From a virus (Duplodnaviria > Heunggongvirae > Uroviricota > Caudoviricetes), in IMG/VR virus record IMGVR_UViG_2534681978_000013: a stretch of DNA of 12,586 bases. One strand, given 5' to 3'. A program made the position numbers and the translations under genes. How positions within the stretch are numbered: the stretch's first letter is position 1; each line of letters opens with the position of its first letter. Shown piece by piece: positions 1-12,586 of the stretch. Below the pieces are notes generated by a model. The model had not been told where the DNA came from. It saw only the letters and a program-made list of their open reading frames with translations, and did not search any database.

Positions 1-674
1 GAACAGAGCGGCAATAAGTCGTCATCCCATGTTTTATCCAGGGCGATCAGCAGAGTGTTAATCTCCTGCATGGTTTCATCGTTAACCGGAGTGATGTCGC
101 GTTCTGGCTGACGTTCTGCAGTGTATGCGGTATTTTCGACAATGCGCTCGGCTTCATCCTTGTCATAGATACCAGCAAATCCGAAGGCCAGACGAGCACA
201 CTGAATCATGGCTTTATGCCGTAACATCCGTTTGGGATGCGACTGCCACGGCCCCGTGATTTCTCTGCCTTCGCGGGTTTTGAATGGTGCGCGGCGACAT
301 TCATCCATCCACTCGGTAACGCAGATCGGGTGATTGCGATCTTTGCGGTAAATCCGGCATGTACAGGACTCATTGTCCTGCTCAAAGTCCATGCCATCAA
401 ACTGCTGGTTTTCATTGATAATGCGGGACCAGCCATCAACGCCAACCACCGGAACGATGCCGTTCTGCTTATCAGGGAAGGCGTAAATTTCTTTCGTCCA
501 CGGATTAAGGCCGTACTGGTTGGCGACGATCAACAATGCGATAAATTGCGCATCGCTGGCATCACCTTTAAATGCCGTCTGGCGAAGAGTGGTGATTAGT
601 TCCTGTGGGTCGACAGAATCCATGCCGACACGTTCAGCCAGCTTCCCTGCCAGCGTTGCGAGTGCTGTACTCAT
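1..674 (-). CDS. bet: Bet-like single-strand annealing recombinase, partial (C-terminus runs off the window start)
   Basis: Hand translation of the minus strand from ATG at 674 gives MSTALATLAGKLAERVGMDSVDPQELITTLRQTAFKGDASDAQFIALLIVANQYGLNPWTKEIYAFPDKQNG..., which matches my recollection of lambda Bet almost residue for residue. Not in the ORF track because no stop lies within the window. Confidence 0.9.
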   Translation of the reverse strand, partial: MSTALATLAGKLAERVGMDSVDPQELITTLRQTAFKGDASDAQFIALLIVANQYGLNPWTKEIYAFPDKQNGIVPVVGVDGWSRIINENQQFDGMDFEQDNESCTCRIYRKDRNHPICVTEWMDECRRAPFKTREGREITGPWQSHPKRMLRHKAMIQCARLAFGFAGIYDKDEAERIVENTAYTAERQPERDITPVNDETMQEINTLLIALDKTWDDDLLPLC

Positions 675-679
675 CCGTT

Positions 680-976
680 TTATACCTCTGAATCAATATT
701 AATTTGGTGACGGGCGATGGTTTCAGCCATGTAGCGGATGTGTTCTGCCATGCGTTCCTGAAAATCGACATCGTCATCAAATGCACGGGAAATAGCTTTT
801 TTGCTGGCCCCGTGACGTTGCAGATTATCGATGCATAGCGATTCAAACAGGTGTTGGGGCAGACCTTTTTCCAGGTCGTCTGCCAGCTCAGCTTCAGTTT
901 CTTCACGGGCAATTTGCTGGTAGTGTCGTGCCCATGACTGCTCTTCAATGCGATCGGGGATAAGCCAGGCATTCAT
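680..976 (-). CDS. gam: Gam-like RecBCD inhibitor, 98 aa (short form)
   Basis: Protein [26 protein letters not shown]...[20 protein letters not shown] closely resembles the C-terminal 98 aa of lambda Gam. Stop TAA lies 5 nt upstream of the bet ATG; the start overlaps the stop of the upstream 690-aa ORF (ATGA). Confidence 0.85.
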
Positions 977-3045
977 GATTTATCACCTCCGAAATTTTCA
1001 AGCCTGTTGGCAATCATGATGGCGATATCAGGGATTGCTGGCGCTGTGGCTATACATGCGGGGTTGGCGCACAAACCATAGACGGCGGCAATCACGAGCT
1101 GTCTTTTCCAGTCGAGAGTTACTGGCTCAGAATTGGCGTCATCGCCGGACGTATCACTGCCTGGCTCGTTCTGAACAACGGTTTCGCCCTCCTGAGCGGC
1201 ATCAACAGAGTTTTCCTGAATGATCTTCTCCTCAGTTTGTGCTGAGTCTTCTCCATCAGCGGCGTCATTTTCTCCAAAAGTTTCAGCGTAAGTTTCATCT
1301 CCCATTACTGGACCACAGTCAGGGCAATGGCCGCCACCGTTCCGACTGCATGTGGTGCAAACCTTTTCCACTTCCTGTTGCATTACTGGCCCTGGCTGTT
1401 GCTCTTCTGGCCCGTTTTGTTGCGTATCCGGGCTGTTTTGTCCCGCTTCTGGGGCAATTTGTTCCACTTTGGACTGATTCTGGTCCTCAGTGTCGCGAGT
1501 CTGGATCCCCTTCACCCACTTCGGATCAGCAGGGTTACTGATGCATTCAACGAATTCTCCACGCGAGGCAGCCAGTAATTTGTCGGCATCGACTGGATTT
1601 TTTGGGGGGATGTTTTCCCTGGCTTTATTGAGTTCCTCCCTCAGTTCCTGGTATTTCGTTTCTACAGATGAGACATTTTCCAGTGATTGCGTGTCCTCAT
1701 TATGTTTAACTGGAATTTCTTCCACTGATTCAGGCGCTGCCTGTTCATTAGCCATTGTGTCCGATGCTTGTTGCTTTTCTTCATCGCCATGTTTTCCTTC
1801 TGCTGTTCCGCACTGCGGCATCGGTGCTGATGAGCGACCGCAGGCAATTTCCACGATTTCCGGATCCGGGTTAGCGTGATCGGTTTCGGTCAACACTTTG
1901 TTGAGATATTCAGTCACGCGTGCCGGGATGGCCTCAATGCCGATTGGTGCTTCTTTCACGGAAGCCACCACAATGGCGCGGGAATAATCCAGCCCACCGG
2001 GCATGGCGATAAATTTGTCGCGAAAAACAGAAAAGGGCGGCTTATTCTCTGACACGATTTCTTCAACGCGTTTTGCGTGTGCTGGGTGCAGGTTATAAAT
2101 ATCCACATCCATTGAACGGGCCAGAACGCCGGTGGCTACATCTCGTGCGAGTGATGTCTTATCATGTTTGAATCCTTCACCACGATCGGTAATATTTCCG
2201 CCGCCAGCGTTAGCACCGGAAGGCGTACGGGTAATGCCTGAAACATAATTTCCGTTCTGCCATTCTTTTGTCAGCAGGCCCTGATCAAGGTAGTCAGTTT
2301 TCATCCAGGTGGAAATGAACTTGTCGAATTCAGCCGGGCTGATTCGATGATTTGCAGAGTGGGGGAATGCTTTCCCTACAGATTCAGCCAGGCGACTAAG
2401 GTGATAGTTCGTCAGTTTATCCAGTTCATGATGCGCGGCGCGCACAGCAGTAAGCAGGCTCTGAAGGTAACTGTCCTCTGTGTCCATCTCCATACGGATC
2501 ACGTTATTGCGTTGTTCTGGTGTGGCATGATGCCGGTATTTTCCATCTTCATCTTTGCTGAATAAGAAGAGGTGAAGGAAGCGATGAGTAAGGCTCAGAG
2601 TGGCGACGGGAATTTCACACTCAGAACAGTCATCGTCGCTGTCCGGGGATTCGCTTTTCTCCACATCATCCGGAATAGTTCCGTCCAGGTTATCGTTGTC
2701 ATCGCCAGCAGTTGTGGCATCTTCACCGTTGATGTTGTCATCGAAGGGGATAGCCATCATGGTGATGCCATCGTTACCGCCTTTTTCATAGCGGTTGCAG
2801 AATTCAGTATCAAACACGCCTTCCGGTGGAAGGTCATTCACGACGGGGAAATTTACGCGAACGGGTTTTTTGAAATCATCCTCGTCGTAGCCTGCATCGT
2901 CCATGGCTGCAATGCAGCGGGAAACTGCGACAGAAAGTTTTCTGGCCTCGGTCCAGAAAAAACCGCCTTTGATGCCAAGGCGTTTTCTGACTTTATCGTT
3001 TTTTGCTTCGCAGTGTAGTGCAAAAGTCTGTTTATCAGCGCTCAT
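973..3045 (-). CDS. Large acidic hypothetical protein (690 aa) with a CxxC-x7-CxxC zinc-ribbon motif; possibly related to the non-nuclease N-terminal region of RecE-family proteins
   Basis: Long uninterrupted ORF co-oriented with the pL operon. Contains D/E-rich low-complexity stretches and [15 protein letters not shown]. The block ...[16 protein letters not shown]...[58 protein letters not shown]... resembles, from memory only, the N-terminal part of Rac RecE. No C-terminal nuclease domain: the ORF ends where gam begins. Confidence 0.8.
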
Positions 3046-3152
3046 TGTATTTAAACCTCTGGCTGGATTAGAATTAGCGGCCCTTTGTCTGATTTCTCCG
3101 AATACGGTGACGCAGGGAGAAATCCGGTAGCCTGCGCTGCCGGATTTTTATT

Positions 3153-3539
3153 TCAGTGGAAGGTTGCCTGGTTTGCTGTTTTGTGAGTTGTTTTTCCCTT
3201 TTCGTGCTGGCATTCAGGGCAGTCGCACTCAGAATTTTCTCTTGCAAACTCAAGAGCCTGTGCAAGTGTATGGATTTGTTGTACTCCAATGTTGCTTCTG
3301 ACAACTTCACGTGCAGCATGAATATATGGGCTTGGTGTTTTGCCATTTAACCCACATAAAACAAAACGACTGTCCTTATATTCGTTATTTCCAACTTCTG
3401 TAAGCACTGAAAAAGAAAATACAAAGTCGATTTTGTATTCTTTGCATATTTTACTGATGCGTTCTGCAATTTCTTTGAGTTCATTTATTGCATCAGGACT
3501 GGTTTTGGAAAATATTTCATTTTGCGCAAGTTCTTTCAT
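3153..3539 (-). CDS. Hypothetical protein, 128 aa, AT-rich gene
   Basis: ORF in operon orientation; AT-rich by eye relative to the flanks; C-terminal CDCPEC cysteine cluster; no family recognised. Confidence 0.55.
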   Translation of the reverse strand: MKELAQNEIFSKTSPDAINELKEIAERISKICKEYKIDFVFSFSVLTEVGNNEYKDSRFVLCGLNGKTPSPYIHAAREVVRSNIGVQQIHTLAQALEFARENSECDCPECQHEKGKTTHKTANQATFH

Positions 3540-3622
3540 TTTGATTTTTCCGTGATTGATAATTAATGCGGTTTTATTTCGGCTTGTCTGTTACAGATAT
3601 GGAAGGTGTATTTTATTACTCG

Positions 3623-3862
3623 TCACAACGACGCTGCTTTTACGGGTAAGCCATCGCGCCCGATGAAAACTTTAATCATGCAGTCGGTAATGCATGTTTT
3701 TGTTGTGAAGTTACGAATATAGAGTTTTCTCTTTTCAATATTGTTTGCTGAAGCGATATATGTCCGACCTTCATGAAGAACATAATCGCCAGGCGTCACG
3801 CACTGACGTGGTATTTCATCAGTTTCGAAGTGATGAGCAATCATAATTATCTCCATTTTCAC
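3623..3862 (-). CDS. Hypothetical protein, about 77-79 aa (GTG at 3862 or ATG at 3856)
   Basis: ORF upstream of the 128-aa gene in the same AT-rich block; weak ribosome-binding site; no family recognised. Confidence 0.4.
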
Positions 3863-4017
3863 AAATGAACTTTGTTGATGCGGTGCCTGGTGCCTCCAGG
3901 TGACGTTAACCAGTTAACAACTAACGCCGGGTCAGGGGACGATGACTTTCCGTGACATCCTGTCGGTTTAACTGTTCCGCGTGCGCATAGCCGCATTCAC
4001 CGCATCACAAAATTCAC

Positions 4018-4061
4018 TTTAAAAAGGGCGGACATCAGCAATCGGCAAACCGATGTCCGCC
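4018..4061 (-). terminator. Intrinsic terminator for leftward transcription
   Basis: Perfect 10-bp GC-rich stem ggcggacatc (4027-4036) / gatgtccgcc (4052-4061); on the minus-strand RNA it is followed by CUUUUUAAA (reverse complement of 4018-4026). Confidence 0.55.
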
Positions 4062-4300
4062 AAGGGCTACACACAGCAATGTTGTTATTCACAACCGGAA
4101 GCGCACGGTCGAAGAAATCTAACGACAAGCCTTCAATGGGTAAGAGTCTTCGCCGTGCACTTTCGTGTTGTACCCTGGCTTTCAGGGTAATGTCTGTTCA
4201 GTAAACTGAGACTGCCGGAACTCACCCGTGTCCGGCGCACGATCTCCACCTCACCCGTGGAGAACTCCTCAACTACAAACCCCGTAAGGAGAGTGAATTT

Positions 4301-4510
4301 ATGACACAAGAAGAAAAAGTGATGTTTCTGATGCGGCTGGCTGTCGATACCCACAACACACAATTCAGGGAGAAAGATATACCTCAAAAGGCAGTTCCTG
4401 CCGCGGTAGATAAGGGCGGTGCTATTGCCGTATTTTACGATGCATTTGAATCATTTTTTGATGAAAAACTCGACGCTGTTAGCGACTTCGGAACATCGAG
4501 TAATAAATAA
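4301..4510 (+). CDS. Small hypothetical protein, 69 aa, transcribed opposite to the pL operon
   Basis: Strong Shine-Dalgarno AAGGAG 9 nt upstream of the ATG (gtaAGGAGagtgaatttATG); clean ORF ending TAA; a weak hairpin plus T-run follows. Confidence 0.6.
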   Translation: MTQEEKVMFLMRLAVDTHNTQFREKDIPQKAVPAAVDKGGAIAVFYDAFESFFDEKLDAVSDFGTSSNK

Positions 4511-4527
4511 CGTTCATTACGGTTCTT

Positions 4528-4562
4528 AAACAACAATCAGTGGGTTTGATGTTGTTCTTTTC
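4528..4562 (+). terminator. Possible weak intrinsic terminator after the 69-aa gene
   Basis: Imperfect AT-rich inverted repeat aaacaacaatca / tgatgttgtt followed by cttttc. Confidence 0.3.
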
Positions 4563-4712
4563 AAGCTCACTTGCCATCACTTCCATTATTCTTGCACTTA
4601 CACGAATTATTTGGTGGCTGTAAGCGACGCAACTGTCGCTGATATTGCTGTTTATTTCTATTACTTCATTTTCACTGGCGGCGCTAAATTTGGATATGCC
4701 GTTTCCATTGTC

Positions 4713-4838
4713 CTATTTCAGTGCTTTTTCTGCCATCTGGATGCGTGTCAGCGTTGCGGAATTTGGGCTAAGTCGATAAACCTGTCTGGCATCTTCCAGA
4801 AGCAGGGCGATAATGTGCTTCAGTTCTGTTTCATTCAT
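4713..4838 (-). CDS. Candidate small ORF, 41 aa (MNETELKHIIALLLEDARQVYRLSPNSATLTRIQMAEKALK)
   Basis: Found by hand translation, below the ORF-track threshold. GGAG 9-12 nt upstream of the ATG; lies between the 238-aa gene and the divergent gene in operon orientation. Confidence 0.25.
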   Translation of the reverse strand: MNETELKHIIALLLEDARQVYRLSPNSATLTRIQMAEKALK

Positions 4839-4869
4839 AGTTAACTCCGGTAGTTGCAATTTATTAATA

Positions 4870-5586
4870 TCAGGCGGTCAGCTCTTTAAGCTTCTGAACT
4901 GCTTTATTCATTTCATCCATACAGTCGATGAATTCGTCCAGTTTAAGCTGCATTTTTCCGGCGGCCTGAAGAATTTCAAGTTTTAAGGGCGCAAGTTTTT
5001 TGTTGAATGCATCATCTTCCTGGCGTTTTTTCTCCGCAATTTCGGCGGCTTTCAGCAATTCTTCAGCCTGTTTTCTGAGTATTTCTGGTGAAGGTGAAAC
5101 TGCTTTGAGGTTATTCATTTCAGGTTCCTGTTGTTGCAGAATTAATTTGTTGCATTCTCTGCGTGAGCGTTTCATTGCAGATTCGCACTTCTTGCAATAA
5201 ATGGCTCTCCCGTCACGCTTGCTGGCATCTGAATAAAAATCATTGACTGATTTTGTCTGCCCGCATCTGGTACATAATTTTGATTGAAGGTCCTTAATGA
5301 TTGTGACGTTTCCTTCCCGTTTGGGATATCCATATTTTTTGTGGCGGAAAAAGGTTACTCCGTTACCAGAACCTTCTTTTCTGACCTTAAATACAATGAT
5401 GCTTTCCCGTTTATCGATAAAATCTATGAGCTGGTTTCTCTCCTTTCCTGACAGTTCGGCAAATGTCTTAACTTTTTTAGTAACTTCCGTAAGGCGAACT
5501 CCATCAGGCATTTTTTCAACGAAGTTTTTAATCTCTGCAAGCGGACGCCATAATTTTTGCGGCAAAACTGAAGGCGTGGTCATCAA
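4870..5586 (-). CDS. Hypothetical protein, about 237 aa, with a zinc ribbon (CTRCGQ...CKKC) and a Lys/Glu-rich coiled-coil C-terminus
   Basis: The ATG at 5583 (or TTG at 5586) directly abuts the TGA stop of the N-like gene (tgaTTGATG), implying translational coupling with N. Occupies the sieB/ral-like position. Confidence 0.7.
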   Translation of the reverse strand: MMTTPSVLPQKLWRPLAEIKNFVEKMPDGVRLTEVTKKVKTFAELSGKERNQLIDFIDKRESIIVFKVRKEGSGNGVTFFRHKKYGYPKREGNVTIIKDLQSKLCTRCGQTKSVNDFYSDASKRDGRAIYCKKCESAMKRSRRECNKLILQQQEPEMNNLKAVSPSPEILRKQAEELLKAAEIAEKKRQEDDAFNKKLAPLKLEILQAAGKMQLKLDEFIDCMDEMNKAVQKLKELTA

Positions 5587-5970
5587 TCACCTCGCCGTCA
5601 GTTGTTTTGATTTCCGGTAGCCTGCCGCGTAAATGGCTACGTTTGGAAGACATACACCAGTTTCTGGTTGCTTATGTCCAAACTCATTCGCGTACACAAT
5701 GGCTGCTCGCTCCAGATTGCGTCTGTATTCTTTCTGTTGCCAGATCACGTCCTGTGCCATGAACTTAATTGGCTTAGCGTCTTCTATGCGCTCAGGCGTT
5801 TCGTGAGTACCTTTAGCCTGAATCTGCGCTCTGCTTAGAGTAGGGCGGTGTAATACTTCTGAACTTATTGCTTCTTCGCGGGCCAGCACGCCGTTAGCTA
5901 ATGCCTTTGCCTTTAAACGCTCACGACGATGAGAGCGTGAATTGCCTTTGAACTGAGTTCTGCGTGTCAT
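5587..5970 (-). CDS. N: N-like transcription antiterminator, 127 aa (non-lambda type)
   Basis: First gene downstream of pL. Perfect SD AGGAGG 5 nt upstream of the ATG. N-terminal arginine-rich motif MTRRTQFKGNSRSHRRERLKAKA; C-terminus ...AAGYRKSKQLTAR resembles my recollection of P22 gp24 / H-19B N. Cognate GACAA-loop boxB hairpins lie in both leaders. Confidence 0.75.
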   Translation of the reverse strand: MTRRTQFKGNSRSHRRERLKAKALANGVLAREEAISSEVLHRPTLSRAQIQAKGTHETPERIEDAKPIKFMAQDVIWQQKEYRRNLERAAIVYANEFGHKQPETGVCLPNVAIYAAGYRKSKQLTAR

Positions 5971-6135
5971 ATAGACCTCCTGATGAACTTTGGTGGTGTG
6001 GTAGGTGGGAGACCCATTTCGACCTGTTTCGGCCTACTTCAATTCGGCAATAGTCCCGCAGGCCCCGCCGCTTTACGTGCGACATATTCCCGTCCATGAA
6101 CCCTTCACCACACCCCAAAGTTCACTTTGGTTATT

Positions 6136-6150
6136 GCGCTTTGTCAGCGC
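6136..6150 (-). promoter_or_regulatory. Putative nutL boxB hairpin (GCGCUGACAAAGCGC in the leftward transcript)
   Basis: 5-bp stem with GACAA loop between pL and N, the same loop as the nutR candidate. I could not identify a convincing boxA upstream. Confidence 0.4.
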
Positions 6151-6210
6151 CGTAGATTCATATTTGAATCGTTGTATATTCACCGCCCTGGTGAGTAGTG
6201 CGTCCTGCTG

Positions 6211-6247
6211 ATGTGTTTAGTATCACCGCCAGTGGTATTTATGTCAA
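6211..6247 (-). promoter_or_regulatory. pL promoter
   Basis: -35 TTGACA (plus-strand tgtcaa, 6242-6247) and -10 GATACT (plus-strand agtatc, 6219-6224), arranged as in lambda pL and overlapping OL1/OL2. Confidence 0.85.
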
Positions 6248-6281
6248 CACCGCCAGAGATAATTTATCACCGCAGATGGTT
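6221..6281. promoter_or_regulatory. OL operator array: OL1 6221-6237, OL2 6245-6261, OL3 6265-6281
   Basis: Exact 17-mers tatcaccgccagtggta, caacaccgccagagata and tatcaccgcagatggtt, equal to lambda OL1/OL2/OL3 as I recall them. Confidence 0.9.
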
Positions 6282-6440
6282 ATCTGTATGTTTTTTATAT
6301 GGATTTATTTTTTGCAGGGTTGAGTGGCTTGGGAGGTGATCGAGAGATCTGAATTGCGATGTTTAGTGAGTTGTATCTATTTATTTTTCAATAAATACAT
6401 TTGGTTATGTGTCTTTAGGTGGGGGGGTGAGGCAAAGAAA

Positions 6441-6466
6441 ACCCGGCGCTGAGGCCGGGTTTTTCT
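6441..6466. terminator. Bidirectional intrinsic terminator, end of the cI-cargo operon
   Basis: aaagaaa-ACCCGGC-gctgag-GCCGGGT-ttttct: a 7-bp GC stem flanked by an A-run and a T-run, immediately after the TAG stop of the 258-aa ORF. Lambda has the same hairpin left of rexB. Confidence 0.8.
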
Positions 6467-7241
6467 AGGCTACCAGAGACTCAATCCAAGAGTCTCTGGT
6501 ATGGAATGGCAACACTCGTGCGGTATCATTAAATAGTAGTGATAGTTGCTGTAGCTCAGGTGTTAACCCATCGCTGTCAACTATTACAAATCTATTGTTT
6601 ATGTCAGGAACGACCTGACTTAAGTCAACAATCTTCCCAACTGTTGAGTGGGCAGTATTCCATCCCTTACTGCTGGCAAGGCTTACCGTAAACCCGCGTT
6701 TTGGTGGTATTAGTCGAGACTCATTCCTTAGCGTTAACGGAACAGTAATGTTATGCCCACTAATACCTTTCACTTTTTCCTTTAAGGCTAGTCGCTTCCC
6801 AAGCCCTGCTGATTTTAAGTAACTGATTACACATTTTTCGAACTTATCGTCTTTGACCTCAGCATACCAATCAGCAGTTTGGGCGGATGCAAGAATCCCA
6901 CCACGAATAACATTTGCAGTTACCTGTCCAACGGACGACTCATCTGCCCACGCAGATATCTCTCCAGAGTCATTTAATGAAATTCCTTGCGAAGCGAGTG
7001 ATGACCTGATCAGATCAATTTTCTTTTTAGTCAGGTGGATGCCGCGTGATTCAATATTCATCAATGTATCGCAGTAGTCTGTAACCCTATACTGACCACT
7101 CATCTCTTGAACGAATACACTTATCTGCTCACAATCATCGTAGTATGTGAATGGACTAATAACGCGCAGCAACGTGTCGCTCATTGGGTGGCATTCAAAC
7201 CCGAGCTTAGATATGACTGTTGAACACGTTACATTTCCCAT
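6465..7241 (-). CDS. Hypothetical protein, 258 aa (alternative start at 7184), distal gene of the cassette in the rexB position
   Basis: Long ORF co-oriented with cI, overlapping the upstream 180-aa ORF by 13 nt; AT-rich by eye; no RexB similarity and no family recognised. Confidence 0.7.
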   Translation of the reverse strand: MGNVTCSTVISKLGFECHPMSDTLLRVISPFTYYDDCEQISVFVQEMSGQYRVTDYCDTLMNIESRGIHLTKKKIDLIRSSLASQGISLNDSGEISAWADESSVGQVTANVIRGGILASAQTADWYAEVKDDKFEKCVISYLKSAGLGKRLALKEKVKGISGHNITVPLTLRNESRLIPPKRGFTVSLASSKGWNTAHSTVGKIVDLSQVVPDINNRFVIVDSDGLTPELQQLSLLFNDTARVLPFHTRDSWIESLVA

Positions 7242-7771
7242 GATAACTGACCTGATTTATCTTGATTAGGTAAAGGTGGGCTGCCTTCATATATGATATT
7301 AAGCGCCTCGCAAAAATAATTCCAGTAGCCAAAAAAATCATCTGGCTTGATGTTCGTTTCAAGCTTAAGTGCAATTTCTTCCCCAGCTGATTCGAAGTAC
7401 ATGTGATAGTGAGGACCTCGAGCCACCTCAACAAAATCTGGATGGTTCACTATAGATTTATTACGGTGTGGCTTGTTATCCGCAGGGTACGGATCAAGCG
7501 CGTAAATGCGCCTGTCATGAAGAAACATCACAAATGAAATCTTCACTATATCCACCCCTTCAACGATAGGAGGACGCCAGTGAAGCATAAATCTTATGCC
7601 TGTGATTGGGTTGCCAATTTCATCAAAAGCTTTGAGATCCAATTTAAACCAGATTGGGGTTCGTCCCTCACTTCCGGTCCATGTAACTCCGCTAAAAGTT
7701 ACTTTTTTCAAGCGAGTAATAGCTTGGTCAACCTCTTTCTGGGTAGGCTTAAAGTCGCCTTTTTTAGCCAC
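7229..7771 (-). CDS. Hypothetical protein, 180 aa (GTG start), proximal gene of the cassette in the rexA position
   Basis: ORF begins 46 bp downstream of the cI stop with a GTG start and a GGTGA SD-like element upstream; no RexA similarity and no family recognised. Confidence 0.7.
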   Translation of the reverse strand: MAKKGDFKPTQKEVDQAITRLKKVTFSGVTWTGSEGRTPIWFKLDLKAFDEIGNPITGIRFMLHWRPPIVEGVDIVKISFVMFLHDRRIYALDPYPADNKPHRNKSIVNHPDFVEVARGPHYHMYFESAGEEIALKLETNIKPDDFFGYWNYFCEALNIIYEGSPPLPNQDKSGQLSWEM

Positions 7772-7817
7772 TGATTCGTATCACCATGAAAGCTATTGTT
7801 AATACCTGTGCTTCTTG

Positions 7818-8534
<717 letters not shown>

Positions 8535-8541
8535 TTAAATC

Positions 8542-8605
8542 TATCACCGCAAGGGATAAATATCTAACACCGTGCGTGTTGACTATTTTACCTCTAGCGG
8601 TGATA
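8542..8605. promoter_or_regulatory. OR operator array with PRM/PR: OR3 8542-8558, OR2 8565-8581, OR1 8589-8605; PR -35 TTGACT 8579-8584, -10 GATAAT 8602-8607
   Basis: tatcaccgcaagggata (OR3) and taacaccgtgcgtgttg (OR2) match lambda exactly; OR1 reads tacctctAgcggtgata, one base different from lambda TACCTCTGGCGGTGATA (position 8596). Confidence 0.9.
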
Positions 8606-8631
8606 ATGGTTGCATGTACTAAGGAGGTTGT

Positions 8632-8832
8632 ATGGAACAACGCATAACCCTGAAAGATTATGCAATACGCTTTGGGCAAACCAAGACGGCTAAAGATCTC
8701 GGCGTATATCAAAGCGCGATTAACAAGGCCATTCATGCAGGCCGAAAGATTTTTTTAACTATAAACGCTGATGGAAGCGTTTATGCGGAAGAAATAAAGC
8801 CCTTCCCAAGTAACAAAAAAACAACTGCATAA
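8632..8832 (+). CDS. cro: Cro repressor, 66 aa
   Basis: [66 protein letters not shown] is near-identical to lambda Cro (two conservative differences by recollection). SD AAGGAGG upstream. Confidence 0.95.
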
Positions 8833-8839
8833 GTAACAC

Positions 8840-8885
8840 CGCTCTTTTCACAATGGACATTCGTCCTACGTCGCTGACAAAGCGA
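8840..8885 (+). promoter_or_regulatory. Putative nutR: boxA-like CGCTCTTTT (8840-8848) and boxB hairpin TCGCTGACAAAGCGA (8871-8885)
   Basis: boxA-like 9-mer right after the cro stop; 5-bp stem with GACAA loop matching the nutL candidate. The 22-nt spacing is longer than in lambda. Confidence 0.45.
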
Positions 8886-8970
8886 GTCCCAATATATCTG
8901 ACCAACTAAGGCCATATGCGTTTCCACGCATACCTTTCAACTAACTATTCACTATTGGAAATCTTAAGAA

Positions 8971-9267
8971 ATGGAACAAACAAGTTACAGCAAACTATCA
9001 CAGCGCGATATCGATCGCGCTGAAACGGATTTACTTATCAACCTGTCAGCTCTGACGCAAAGGGGACTGGCGAAGATGATTGGCTGTCATGAATCGAAGG
9101 TCAGTCGTACCGACTGGCGATACATCGCGGCGATTTTATGCGCGTTTCAGATGGCATCTGATATCAGTCCGATCAGCCGGGCTTTCCAGCATGCCATTAA
9201 CGTTCATGCAAATAAAAAACGTCCGGTTGGGGCCGGACGTTCTGAGCAAATCCTGATGAATATCTGA
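8971..9267 (+). CDS. cII: CII-like transcriptional activator, 98 aa (non-lambda allele)
   Basis: Position immediately right of cro/nutR; C-terminal NKKRPVGAGRSEQILMNI parallels lambda CII NKKRPAATERSEQIQMEF; helix-turn-helix-like segment in the middle. Confidence 0.65.
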   Translation: MEQTSYSKLSQRDIDRAETDLLINLSALTQRGLAKMIGCHESKVSRTDWRYIAAILCAFQMASDISPISRAFQHAINVHANKKRPVGAGRSEQILMNI

Positions 9268-9338
9268 TATTCAGGCAGGGCATGGAGCAATACACGGGAA
9301 TAATTCTGCCACATCTGGAAGAATTTCGCCAGCAACAA

Positions 9339-9397
9339 CACCAACCGCAGCAGCCTGAAGCCGATTGGGTTAACCCGGGAGATACCGGGACCGTCTG
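9339..9397. repeat. 59-bp direct repeat, copy A, in the cII-O intergenic region
   Basis: caccaaccgcagcagcctgaagccgattgggttaacccgggagataccgggaccgtctg; contains the 10-bp palindrome GGGTTAACCC. Confidence 0.9.
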
Positions 9398-9429
9398 TGA
9401 AGATGTGCAGTCACACCAATGTGCAGTCA

Positions 9430-9488
9430 CACCAACCGCAGCAGCCTGAAGCCGATTGGGTTAACCCGGGAGATACCGGGACCGTCTG
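9430..9488. repeat. 59-bp direct repeat, copy B (identical to copy A)
   Basis: Same 59-mer 91 bp downstream of copy A; a 15-bp tandem gtgcagtcacaccaa x2 lies between and into it (9405-9435). Confidence 0.9.
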
Positions 9489-9521
9489 CGGTATGGAGTA
9501 AATCTTGTATGCGAGGGGACT

Positions 9522-10604
9522 ATGCGTAATTACGCAACAATTTCACCTCAGTTCTGGTTAGGCGAAACAGGGAGAAAACTAAGGAAGTCTGGTCCGGAAT
9601 GTATGGTAGTGGCGTTGTATATGATGACCTCGCCTCATTCCAATATGCTGGGCCTTTATTACCTGCCTGTTTTGTACATTGCTCACGAAACCGGACTTGA
9701 TCCTGAAGGGGCTTCTAAGGGGCTTCAAATGGCTTGCGAGGCTGGTTTTTGCAGCTATGACCATGATTCTGAGGTTGTATGGGTGCATGAAATGGCAGCA
9801 TGGCAGGTTGGTGAATCGCTGAAACCTGGCGATAACCGTTGTGCTGGGGTAAGAAATGAATATTCCGCGTTGCTGGAAAATCCTTTTTTATCATCCTTTT
9901 ATGATAGATATAAGGATGATTTCCACCTGGATGTCAGACGTGAATCATGTCGGAAAATTGAAGCCCCTTCAGAGCCCCTTTCAAGCCAAGAACAGGAACA
10001 GGAACAGGAACAGGAAAGGGATAAAACCCTTCTGGTCCATGGCGAAAAAATCGCCACGGACCCACAGGGGGATTTTTGTCCTGTTCTGACTGAACGTCCA
10101 GGACCAGATGGCACGACACCGGAAGCAGATTCCGGGCGTTGTGTGCAGCAGGTGCTGATCGTCGAACCGGAGCAACAACGCCAACCGCAGCAGCCTGAAG
10201 CCGATTCCGCGATGAGCGGGAAGCCGATTGGGTTAACCCGGGCGATGCCGGGACCGTCTGCGGGACGAGTTGATTATCCTGACGTGTTCGAACGGGTCTG
10301 GCGTGAATATCCGCATCGGGCAGGGTCAAACCCGAAGAAATCCGCGTTCAATGCCTGGAGGGCCAGATTACGCGAAGGGGTGTCACCGGATGTCGTGCTG
10401 GATGGCGTGAGGCGTTACGCAAGATACCTGGAGGCTACCGGGAAAGCGGGAACTGAATTTGTTCAGCAGGCATCGACGTTTTTTGGCCCGAACAGGAATT
10501 TCGAAAATCCGTGGTCGCTGCCGAAGGCTGGCGCAGTCAGCCTGCGTTGCGTGAATCACATTTCTGAACCGGACACCGAAATTCCGCCGGGTTTCAGGGG
10601 GTAA
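9522..10604 (+). CDS. Putative replication initiator in the O position, 360 aa
   Basis: Long ORF with GAGGGGA SD, in the lambda O position; N- and C-terminal domains separated by a Gln/Glu/Pro-rich linker; followed within 6 nt by the DnaC-like gene. Not lambda O by sequence. Confidence 0.75.
   Translation: MRNYATISPQFWLGETGRKLRKSGPECMVVALYMMTSPHSNMLGLYYLPVLYIAHETGLDPEGASKGLQMACEAGFCSYDHDSEVVWVHEMAAWQVGESLKPGDNRCAGVRNEYSALLENPFLSSFYDRYKDDFHLDVRRESCRKIEAPSEPLSSQEQEQEQEQERDKTLLVHGEKIATDPQGDFCPVLTERPGPDGTTPEADSGRCVQQVLIVEPEQQRQPQQPEADSAMSGKPIGLTRAMPGPSAGRVDYPDVFERVWREYPHRAGSNPKKSAFNAWRARLREGVSPDVVLDGVRRYARYLEATGKAGTEFVQQASTFFGPNRNFENPWSLPKAGAVSLRCVNHISEPDTEIPPGFRG
9987..10016 (+). repeat. Hexanucleotide repeat caagaa + (CAGGAA)x4 encoding (QE)n in the initiator linker
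   Basis: Perfect tandem CAGGAA units at 9993-10016, in frame (SQEQEQEQEQER). Confidence 0.9.
10171..10263 (+). repeat. Gene-internal homolog of the 59-bp repeats, with a 23-bp extra segment flanked by gaagccgatt direct repeats
   Basis: agcaacaacgccaaccgcagcagcctgaagccgatt[ccgcgatgagcgggaagccgatt]gggttaacccgggcgatgccgggaccgtctgcgg; shares the GGGTTAACCC palindrome. Confidence 0.85.
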
Positions 10605-10610
10605 TCAGCC

Positions 10611-11351
10611 ATGAAAAACATTTCGACAGGAGGGATTCTTGAACGGGTGCGCCGTCTGGCACCACCGCACGTGGCAGCACCGTTCCGGACGACCGACGAA
10701 TGGCGGGAATGGCAACTGGCTGAGGGCCGTAAGCGCAGCGAGGAAATTAACCGCCTGAATCATCAGGCGCGGGTTGAAAAAATCCTGAACCGTGCGGGCA
10801 TCCAGCCGCTTCACAGGAAGTGCTCATTCGGGAACTACCGGGTGCAGAACGACGGTCAGCGCCATGCTCTGAGCCAGGCGAAATCCATTGTCGATGAATT
10901 GATGACCGGTTATACAAACTTCGTGTTCAGCGGGAATCCGGGAACCGGAAAAAATCATCTGGCGGCGGCTGTGGGTAATCGTCTGCTGAAGGCCGGTAAA
11001 TCCGTGATAGTGGTCACCGTGGCGGATGTGATGAGCGCGTTACATGCCAGCTATGACGACGGACTGTCAGGAGAAAAATTTTTGCGTGAACTGTGCGAAG
11101 TGGACCTCCTGGTTCTTGACGAAATTGGCATCCAGCGTGAGACGAAAAACGAGCAGGTGGTACTGCACCAGATTGTTGACCGCCGGACGGCATCACTGCG
11201 CAGTGTCGGGATGCTGACAAACCTGAATCATGCCGCAATGAGCACGCTTCTTGGTGAGAGGATTATGGACCGGATGACCATGAACGGTGGTCGTTGGGTG
11301 AATTTTAACTGGGAGAGCTGGCGGTCAAACGTTGGACGTCAGGGTATGTGA
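10611..11351 (+). CDS. DnaC-like helicase loader (IstB-like AAA+ ATPase), 246 aa
   Basis: Walker A GNPGTGKNHLAAA and Walker B LLVLDEIG; occupies the P position directly after the initiator gene. Confidence 0.85.
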   Translation: MKNISTGGILERVRRLAPPHVAAPFRTTDEWREWQLAEGRKRSEEINRLNHQARVEKILNRAGIQPLHRKCSFGNYRVQNDGQRHALSQAKSIVDELMTGYTNFVFSGNPGTGKNHLAAAVGNRLLKAGKSVIVVTVADVMSALHASYDDGLSGEKFLRELCEVDLLVLDEIGIQRETKNEQVVLHQIVDRRTASLRSVGMLTNLNHAAMSTLLGERIMDRMTMNGGRWVNFNWESWRSNVGRQGM

Positions 11352-11376
11352 GAATTTTTGACGAGGTAAATTTTCG

Positions 11377-12147
11377 ATGGAAACCGTATTGCATGCACTG
11401 AAAGCGATGGGAAAAGCCAATTCTGTTGAACTGGCGGCGCGGCTTGATATCAGCCGTGAAGAAGTTCTCAACGAACTGTGGGAGCTCAAAAAAAATGGCG
11501 TTGTTGATAAAACGGGTCACACCTGGTTTCTGGCTGTCGAAGGTGAAGCCGGGGTAACCGAAGGGCAGGCACTACAACCTGAAGCGCCGGATGTGGTAAC
11601 CGAAGAGGTCGCTCCAAAAGTTACCGCAGACATGATGATTGAGTTTATCGATCAGGATGGGGCTAAAACGTGTGAGGAACTGGCGGGGAAGTTCGGTGTC
11701 AGCACTCGTAAGGTTGCTTCCACGTTGGCGGTGGTAACAGCAACGAGACGCCTGGTACGCGAGATCAGCAACGGAAAATTCCGTTACAAAATGCCTGATG
11801 TCGAAAACGGCGATTTGAGCGCTTTATCATCGCAGAATAAGCAATCACACCATGACGCAGAAAACAGCGTGGCAGGCGATGAAATGAATCGTTTTCCGTT
11901 GGCATCAGAGAGCACGGCAAAGGCCAGTACAGATGAGTTTATCCGAGAAGTTCCATCATTCACCGAAAAATCTGCCAGTTCGGTGATGCTTCCATCGCTG
12001 CATGCTGCCAGTCGAGAACTTCGTCGCGCCAAAAAACAGGTCCAGAAGTGGGAGCGAGTCTGCGCCGCGCTGCGGGAGCTGAACAAGCACCGGGATATTG
12101 TTCGACAGATTGTCGATTCATCCGGTCGTATTGTGTCGGAAAAGTGA
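11377..12147 (+). CDS. Hypothetical protein, 256 aa, with an N-terminal winged-helix-like segment
   Basis: SD GAGG upstream of the ATG; N-terminal LKAMGKANSVELAARLDISREEVLNELWELKKNGVVDKTGHTWFL resembles a winged-helix fold; repeated WH-like segments; function unknown. Confidence 0.65.
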   Translation: METVLHALKAMGKANSVELAARLDISREEVLNELWELKKNGVVDKTGHTWFLAVEGEAGVTEGQALQPEAPDVVTEEVAPKVTADMMIEFIDQDGAKTCEELAGKFGVSTRKVASTLAVVTATRRLVREISNGKFRYKMPDVENGDLSALSSQNKQSHHDAENSVAGDEMNRFPLASESTAKASTDEFIREVPSFTEKSASSVMLPSLHAASRELRRAKKQVQKWERVCAALRELNKHRDIVRQIVDSSGRIVSEK

Positions 12148-12586
12148 TTGCCGGAGGGCTTGTGGCAAAAGTTTTTACACAAGAAGAGCGGGAGAAAATT
12201 AAAGGGCAGGTTGTTGAACTCGTACGCCAGAGTGGGCGCGAGACGTTACGACAACTGGAAACTAAAACTGGGGCAACAAGATATCTGATGAGCGTTCTGG
12301 CCAGAGAACTGGTTGCCAGTGGCGATGTATACAACTCTGGTTACGGGTTATTCCCGTCTGAACAGGCGCGTAAGGACTGGCAAAATGCTCGCAAAAAACT
12401 CTCAAGGGCAAAGGTGAAGAAACCTGCAGTGGTTGATCCGGACCTTATCTGGTCGTTACCAGACGGCGAAATACGCCGCTACGACAGGCGNCNGAANATA
12501 ATCTGTCGCGAGTGCCGGAAGAGCGAAGTTATGCAGCGCGTACTGGCGNTTTATCANGGTAANTTTCAGGNNGTAGCGCAGTGAGT
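12144..12586 (+). CDS. Hypothetical protein, partial (runs off the window end), probable GTG start overlapping the upstream stop
   Basis: GTG at 12144 overlaps the TGA at 12145-12147 (GTGA) and is in frame with track ORF 12048..12584; the ATG at 12048 lies inside the upstream gene. The 3' end contains ambiguous bases. Confidence 0.5.

Follow-up and report, generated by a model that had tools for sequence, protein, structure and literature searches.

The tandem repeats between cII and the replication gene of this prophage are probably a variable-copy recombination scar derived from the linker of the replication gene itself, with no replication, regulatory or RNA function indicated, and the open reading frame (ORF) running across them is probably accidental. 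The array belongs to a known class, that of variable-number tandem repeats (VNTRs) or segmental duplications at phage mosaic joints. The window, i.e. the whole stretch of 12,586 nucleotides analysed here, was found to be a contig of the draft genome of E. coli O104:H4 strain 01-09591 (HUSEC41), and it covers the immunity and replication region of a lambdoid prophage. Its features are as follows.

7818–8531, minus strand: cI (Peptidase_S24 and HTH).
8632–8832: cro.
8971–9267, plus strand: cII, the left neighbour of the repeats (Pfam Phage_CII, E = 3.8e-26).
9215–9293, minus strand: oop-like antisense RNA, with a terminator hairpin at 9243–9216, overlapping the 3' end of cII.
9282–9449, plus strand: ORF across the repeats, probably accidental; 55 aa here, 72 aa (to 9500) in most relatives.
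9331–9397, no strand assigned: upstream copy 1 of the linker fragment; exact part 9338–9397, palindrome GGGTTAACCC at 9367–9376, extra G at ~9377.
9403–9434, no strand assigned: 16-nt tandem sub-repeat ATGTGCAGTCACACCA, two units, forming the spacer and the left flank of copy 2.
9429–9491, no strand assigned: upstream copy 2 of the linker fragment; exact part 9429–9488, palindrome at 9458–9467.
9522–10604, plus strand: replication initiator/organiser gene, 360 aa, consisting of an N-domain, a QE-rich and PEAD-rich linker, and a C-domain.
9706–9727, plus strand: iteron-like cluster 1, AAGGGGCTTC twice with an 11-bp period; candidate initiator-binding sites.
9870–9929, no strand assigned: AT-rich trough (GC 0.32) with an imperfect palindrome at 9890–9920; candidate unwinding element.
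9958–9980, minus strand: iteron-like cluster 2, inverted, followed by (GAACAG)4.5 at 9990–10016.
10171–10263, plus strand: gene-internal parent copy in the linker; palindrome at 10230–10239, extra 23 nt at 10207–10229.
10611–11351, plus strand: DnaC-like helicase loader, the right neighbour (Pfam IstB_IS21, E = 1.1e-19; phrog_50).
11377–12147: DUF1627 gene.

The replication gene had been labelled O-like in the preliminary description, and this label turned out to be positional only. The full-length 360-aa protein corresponded to phrog_1701 ('DnaD-like helicase loader', E = 3.7e-152), its C-terminal half matched PHROGs described as 'replication initiation protein', with phrog_3729 also matched, and no Pfam family was found at E ≤ 0.01. 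In sequence searches against Pfam, NCBIfam and PDB, the only family assignment was that from PHROGs, plus a weak DnaT-like tail. The C-domain was common to many E. coli prophage replication genes at ~82% DNA identity (seen in most of the 2,502 records within the 80–90% identity band, and in phage hits). Judged from these matches, the gene is the positional counterpart of lambda O and not a demonstrable homologue. The C-terminal 25 aa (10525–10601; CVNHISEPDTEIPPGFRG) weakly resembled the C-terminus of DnaT, with E of about 0.01 against PDB and NCBIfam, which probably explains the 'primosomal protein I' annotations in phage records.

On the other side of the repeats, the minus strand of 9205–9300 gave a fold with z = –4.23 and contained a strong intrinsic terminator. 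The 3' half of this oop-like RNA was like that of lambda oop by eye, and its 5' end at ~9293 was placed according to the 77-nt length of lambda oop. Neither a sigma-70 consensus promoter (scan of 8900–9700) nor an Rfam match was found for it. The oop-like RNA accounts for part of the intergenic conservation, and it does not overlap the repeats.

Self-comparison of the window showed a direct repeat that was exact over 60 nt, at 9338–9397 and 9429–9488, with a spacing of 91 nt. Two identical 59-bp repeats had been described before; the exact repeats are real, but their length is 60 nt and their identity is confined to the window, as explained below. The homology of copy 1 extended more loosely leftward to 9331, and that of copy 2 to the in-gene copy stopped at CTGCGG. 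The nested tandem, earlier given as 15 bp, actually consisted of two 16-nt units at 9403–9434, and in other alleles this sub-repeat was expanded (P0002) or contracted (P0004). The left flank of unit 2, in which GTGCAG is joined to TCACACCAAC, resembled a linker of the common type lacking 27 nt internally, indicating that the array itself is mosaic.

As had been noted, a palindrome was present in every copy. GGGTTAACCC, a perfect 10-bp palindrome, had exactly three occurrences in the window, one per upstream copy and one in the in-gene copy. When up to one mismatch was allowed, four sites were found in the window against 0.17 expected, and none of 200 shuffles reached four. A second short inverted repeat, CCCGG..CCGGG, was also shared by all copies. 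The GC content was 0.55–0.60 over 9330–9480 and 0.60–0.67 over 10140–10260, and an AT-rich flank was absent. The RNA fold z-scores of the array and of a single unit were –0.45 and –0.37, no better than those of shuffles, and the reading of the array as a structured RNA was dropped for this reason. The scan of 8900–9700 gave no sigma-70 consensus promoter on either strand and thus no support for a promoter role of the repeats or for an exact oop promoter. An Rfam scan of the whole window returned no match, and literature searches covering POCJ13 and the iterons and replication modules of such phages turned up no mention of the repeats.

It had also been described that the same sequence recurs inside the gene linker, and this was confirmed at 10171–10263. 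The in-gene copy was 97% identical to the upstream sequence over its first 36 nt and 92% over its last 49 nt, and its 23-nt interruption was bounded by GAAGCCGATT at 10197–10206 and 10220–10229. The linker was surveyed in 120 IMG/VR loci that have the word CAGCAGCCTGAWGCCGAT in common. Among related replication genes, the linker met most often contained GAAGCCGATTCCGCCATTCAGCGGGAAGCCGATCGGGTAGTCCCGGAAAACACCGGGCAGCCTGTG, coding PEADSAIQREADRVVPENTGQPVG, and it had CGGGTAGTCCC...CAGCCTGTG where the upstream and in-gene copies share the palindrome and GACCGTCTGCG. Among the linkers surveyed, the palindrome together with GACCGTCTGCG was seen only in this lineage's own linker. The alleles keeping the 23 nt had a CGATGAG variant which was likewise common to their upstream copies and their own linker. 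Because the upstream copies carry such lineage-specific characters, the parent is this gene's own linker. The earlier proposal that slipped or illegitimate recombination left a scar here, the copy inside the gene being the parent, is therefore supported by characters (the palindrome, GACCGTCTGCG and CGATGAG) that, among the linkers surveyed, occur in this lineage only.

Compared with the commonest linker, the window linker was of equal length and carried a –1 then +1 compensated frameshift at 10197–10245, by which the palindrome was created. About 13 residues were replaced in this patch (SGKPIGLTRA versus IQREADRVVPE...). The linker evidently tolerates frameshifts and deletions, like an unstructured spacer. 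The upstream and in-gene copies also varied together. Both had CCTGATGCC and GAGATGCC, with GAT and GAGATG, in the ~79% identical relative L006, and both had CCTGAAGCC, with GAA, in the window. As these later substitutions were shared lineage by lineage and the array flanks were common to both lineages, the comparison points to continuing gene conversion between the upstream and in-gene copies.

The copy number of the array was then counted in 5,426 complete E. coli genomes, about 80 of which retained it, and was found to be distributed as follows.

68 genomes: at least one inter-copy junction (two or more copies).
3 of the 68 (TOE17, 23CRST047 and 23CRST049): two junctions (three copies).
65 genomes: exactly two copies, the dominant allele.
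About 10 genomes: one copy.
3 genomes: a precise fusion of the upstream and in-gene copies.

Two or more copies were also present in four Stx phages, and the same one-copy and two-copy classes were found among the IMG/VR loci. The unit spacing in relatives was 90 or 113 nt. L006, a locus in the complete genome of E. coli 23CRST049, contained three copies of a 113-nt unit keeping the 23-nt segment. In the allele L040 the palindrome was broken and read GGGTTATCCC. The spacing from the upstream to the in-gene copy varied among E. coli alleles in 6-nt steps (766, 772 and 778 nt). In the fusion allele (L005:1501–1640; E. coli SW071611 and two sister genomes), recombination between the upstream and in-gene copies had produced a 772-nt deletion, which took out the initiator N-domain together with the iteron region, and the gene was annotated by PGAP as a pseudogene. 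The sequences available for these comparisons were very close to one another, with only one relative at ~79% identity, and they resolve evolutionary constraint poorly.

For the insertion history of the array, we infer that a 70–93-nt fragment of the low-complexity linker of the replication gene was copied into the cII–rep intergenic region. The resulting layout is a linker copy, the 5' flank of the gene, the N-domain with its iterons, the linker again, and the C-domain. We infer further that an illegitimate join, or else one crossover within the linker, brought in the N-domain/origin module; a linker/N-domain/linker layout such as that observed would be the expected footprint of either event. 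The array has then grown and shrunk to one, two or three units by unequal crossing-over or slippage, which also changed the 16-nt sub-repeat and the presence of the 23-nt segment. It appears to exchange sequence with the in-gene copy by gene conversion, and occasional recombination between the array and the in-gene copy deletes the 772-nt N-domain module. These later steps can each be read from the alleles described above.

In several respects the array is like other VNTRs at lambdoid mosaic joints. Its head-to-tail units of ~90–113 nt were polymorphic in copy number among near-identical genomes, it contained nested short sub-repeats, and deletions were bounded by direct repeats of 7–10 nt. 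An identifiable parent with shared derived characters was found at 10171–10263, and the products of recombination between dispersed copies were recovered as the 772-nt deletion in L005 and its two sisters. It differs in that the unit copies the coding linker of the adjacent gene and is placed upstream of that gene, so that the dispersed copies bracket the N-domain/origin module.

Several observations count against the reading of the array as a scar. All copies keep the 10-bp palindrome and CCCGG..CCGGG, which are typical of dimeric DNA-binding sites; the array is kept in ~80 of the 5,426 complete genomes, with two copies dominant; and unit 1 of the dominant allele is exactly 90 nt long and keeps the 72-aa ORF open, phrog_2751 being a curated family. 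The co-evolution of the upstream and in-gene copies could reflect functional coupling as an alternative to gene conversion. We regard it as quite improbable that the bracketing linker copies are more than a passive scar. They might then allow a dimeric protein to loop or handcuff the array to the in-gene copy, with the copy number tuning initiation, or they might make an excisable, exchangeable origin-specificity cassette, which would pass from one prophage to another when a single crossover occurs in the linker that both share.

The preliminary description had considered the repeats as an origin or as auxiliary initiator-binding sites. In such a reading, the palindrome units would be putative auxiliary sites for the initiator or another dimeric protein, which would titrate, loop or handcuff across the origin and thereby tune initiation. 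The perfect palindrome in three copies, strongly over-represented in the window, and the lineage-specific co-variation of the upstream and in-gene copies agree with this, and there is a precedent in lambda, whose record has four iterons annotated within O, in keeping with the stated premise that lambdoid origins lie inside the initiator gene. Nevertheless, the reading is unlikely, because neither the unit nor the palindrome occurred in any of the other genes examined that have this N-domain, which came from at least 14 E. coli loci and from Klebsiella, Acinetobacter, Ralstonia and Fraca/CharmingMan phages. The same type of N-domain with a non-palindromic linker was found in 14–18 loci (18 by BLAST classification), and the upstream flanks of 14 such loci contained no linker copy, the search pattern matching once only, inside the gene. 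The N-domain homologues of Klebsiella, Acinetobacter and Fraca phages had no linker of this kind, and 81 loci had an unrelated N-domain (phage_rep_org_N-like) carrying the common linker. The repeats were thus not co-inherited with the DNA-binding domain of the initiator.

The form of the array also argues against auxiliary sites. Iterons are short, regularly phased repeats of about 11–22 bp next to an AT-rich unwinding region, whereas the array consists of 60-nt repeats at a 91-nt spacing, its copy number varies freely from one to three, and it is GC-rich with no AT-rich neighbour, the sole trough lying at 9870–9929. The palindrome is broken in L040, and a better, separate set of iteron-like sites exists inside the gene at 9706–9980. 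It was observed that GAAGCCGATT is like the iteron GAAGCCCCTT at 8 of 10 positions, but both mismatches lie within the GGGG/CCCC core, which is kept better than any other part of the iteron sites found. Because of these core mismatches, and since the PEAD-coding words also occur in linkers with unrelated N-domains, GAAGCCGATT was set aside as a relative of the iteron.

Compared with the lambda origin, which has four 18-nt iterons and an AT-rich region in O, the array is similar in that its repeats have dyad symmetry, with one copy in mid-gene in the linker, and in that the gene occupies an equal map position between cII and the helicase-loader gene. It is different in that the unit is 60–113 nt and not 18 nt, only a single copy lies in the gene, and the copy number is variable. 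Furthermore, an AT-rich region is lacking next to it, the unit and the DNA-binding domain are not linked across relatives, and the 360-aa gene, having no Pfam match, is not a detectable homologue of lambda O. For the initiator G38P of phage SPP1, initiator boxes lie inside the initiator gene (oriL), with a second set elsewhere (oriR). The idea of sites in two places, one of them within the gene for the initiator and the other non-coding, would be the same here; the difference is that the putative second set in this prophage is hypervariable and absent from relatives.

The iteron-like sites within the N-domain behaved differently from the array. The motif AAGGGGCTT(C) formed 11-bp-spaced pairs flanking the only AT-rich trough of the gene, and it was found at the same gene offsets (185 and 196; 440–463) in all nine homologues examined, which came from phages of four host genera, Escherichia, Klebsiella, Acinetobacter and Ralstonia. 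The orientation of cluster 2 was flipped between homologues, which altered the encoded peptide (EAPSEPL versus EGASKGL), and the Acinetobacter phage had an additional, non-coding iteron pair just upstream of the start codon. At alignment columns with an invariant residue, the codon was also invariant in 4 of 4 iteron columns, compared with 3 of 49 elsewhere in the N-domain. The flipped orientation, the non-coding pair and the frozen codons point to selection on the DNA rather than on the protein in the iteron clusters. Judging by this conservation, the iterons at 9706–9980 are likely, as candidates, to be the initiator-binding sites and the origin of this initiator family.

Next to cluster 2, the QEQEQE-coding (CAGGAA/GAACAG)n microsatellite at 9990–10016 was conserved across genera as DNA, with a pairwise nucleotide identity of 0.90, while the remainder of the N-domain had 0.66. 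It differed in length between homologues, and the 6-nt spacing steps of the E. coli alleles (766, 772 and 778) were consistent with variation at this site. The microsatellite may be part of the origin.

It may also be asked whether the repeats encode a genuine small protein. In the common two-copy allele, the 72-aa ORF corresponded to the full length of phrog_2751, annotated as of unknown function (E = 4e-55), and to WP_000438870.1, a hypothetical protein; the 55-aa ORF of the window matched residues 1–47 of phrog_2751. A product of this family might modulate the initiator or the loader. The ORF is called by PGAP and by phage annotators, a PHROG family exists for it, the 90-nt unit preserves the frame in two-copy and three-copy alleles, and the start codon and the first 28 residues are near-constant across alleles. 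However, phrog_2751/WP_000438870.1 is apparently a family made up of the alleles of this array, of which the window copy is a frameshifted one. The alleles in the protein databases, all starting with MEQY and all from E. coli, were 102, 88, 76, 72, 62, 58, 51, 46 and 42 aa long. The 102-aa allele consisted of three 90-nt units, those of 88 and 76 aa had an expanded or contracted 16-nt sub-repeat, and those of 42, 46, 51 and 58 aa had just one unit, in which the 23 nt were either present or absent.

The C-terminal half differed in frame and length between alleles, ending in GDTGTVCGME, GLTREIPGPSAVWSKSCMRGDYA or GLTRRYRDRL. In L006 the ORF stopped after 41 codons, and PGAP annotated no CDS in the cII–rep interval. 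In place of the conserved frame and length and the purifying selection expected of a small protein, lengths from 41 to 102 aa and at least three C-terminal frames were found. In the part of the ORF shared by the window and L006, all 5 substitutions were non-synonymous. The variation in frame and length and the handful of non-synonymous substitutions were seen among relatives that are very close to each other. The first part of the ORF was in the frame of the parent linker (QQQHQPQQPEAD) and the second part in the ancestral or lineage frame; the ORF is open because both frames were inherited from the parent coding sequence. In addition, the Shine-Dalgarno-like AGGG ends 1 nt before the ATG, no domain match was found, and the ORF occurred in E. 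coli only. A functional small protein is thus an improbable explanation of the repeats, and the ORF is better regarded as a by-product of the copied linker.

It was also considered whether 9282–9330 might be the stump of the N-terminus of an older replication gene. A tblastn search of the one-copy ORF against phages returned only the same four phages, in six records, and no longer gene starting with MEQY..., so that the stump was not confirmed. Comparison by hand of 9282–9330 with the 5' end of the present gene gave ~37% identity, which was unconvincing.

That the whole duplication is an assembly artefact of the draft contig, as had been allowed for, is refuted: the window does come from a 2011 Ion Torrent/MIRA draft contig, which alone has the additional G at 9377, but the duplication was present in 68 complete genomes, in 65 of them with the two-copy structure, and in 4 phage genomes, all sequenced independently and including complete O104:H4 genomes, so that suspicion is limited to the 1-nt G, for which an artefact is probable.

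Copy 1 of the window read CCCGGGAG, and all other recovered sequences, namely the 4 phage records, all region-bearing complete E. coli genomes and the two-copy IMG/VR loci, read CCCGGAG, with one G fewer and a unit of 90 nt. The extra G at 9377 makes the two window copies identical and truncates the 72-aa ORF to 55 aa, a form that was found on this one contig only. None of the 82 matching genomes, out of 5,426 complete E. coli genomes searched, was 100% identical over 9268–9521, and the best match was 99.6% with a single gap. Compared with the closest complete O104:H4 genome, only 3 indels were counted over 12.2 kb, namely the extra G and two more, one of which fell at the extreme end of the alignment; over 5,000–9,999, the differences from complete O104:H4 genomes were one substitution and the extra G. 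The 01-09591 draft was assembled from 2011 Ion Torrent PGM reads with MIRA and CAP3, and its authors report that 51 of 1,144 core genes had homopolymer errors, which they corrected (PMC3140518). As the extra G is private to this Ion Torrent draft, it is most likely a sequencing or assembly error, of the homopolymer or repeat-consensus kind; at most, it would be a private gene conversion from copy 2.

Relative to L158 (O104:H4 C227-11), the window had 84 substitutions, which were concentrated at its ends (1–1000 and 10000–12196), with 7 in 2,000–9,999, and another 1-nt indel was found at 12157. The clustering of substitutions at the ends suggests recombinational mosaicism between the HUSEC41 prophage and the prophage of the 2011 outbreak.

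Taken alone, the array is small and ordinary, an unstable repeat scar at a mosaic joint. The module that hosts it is a widespread replication module of E. coli and Shigella prophages, including the Stx1 phages 75/02 and POCJ13. The array and the phrog_2751 ORF should not be taken for an origin or for a conserved gene, and the array can be regarded as a hypervariable marker. Its dispersed copies can delete the N-domain of the initiator, after which the prophage no longer has an intact gene for it. For this initiator family, which has been little studied, the probable origin is relocated to the conserved 11-bp repeats at 9706–9980, which offer a concrete, testable target, and these 11-bp iterons are a more useful lead than the array.
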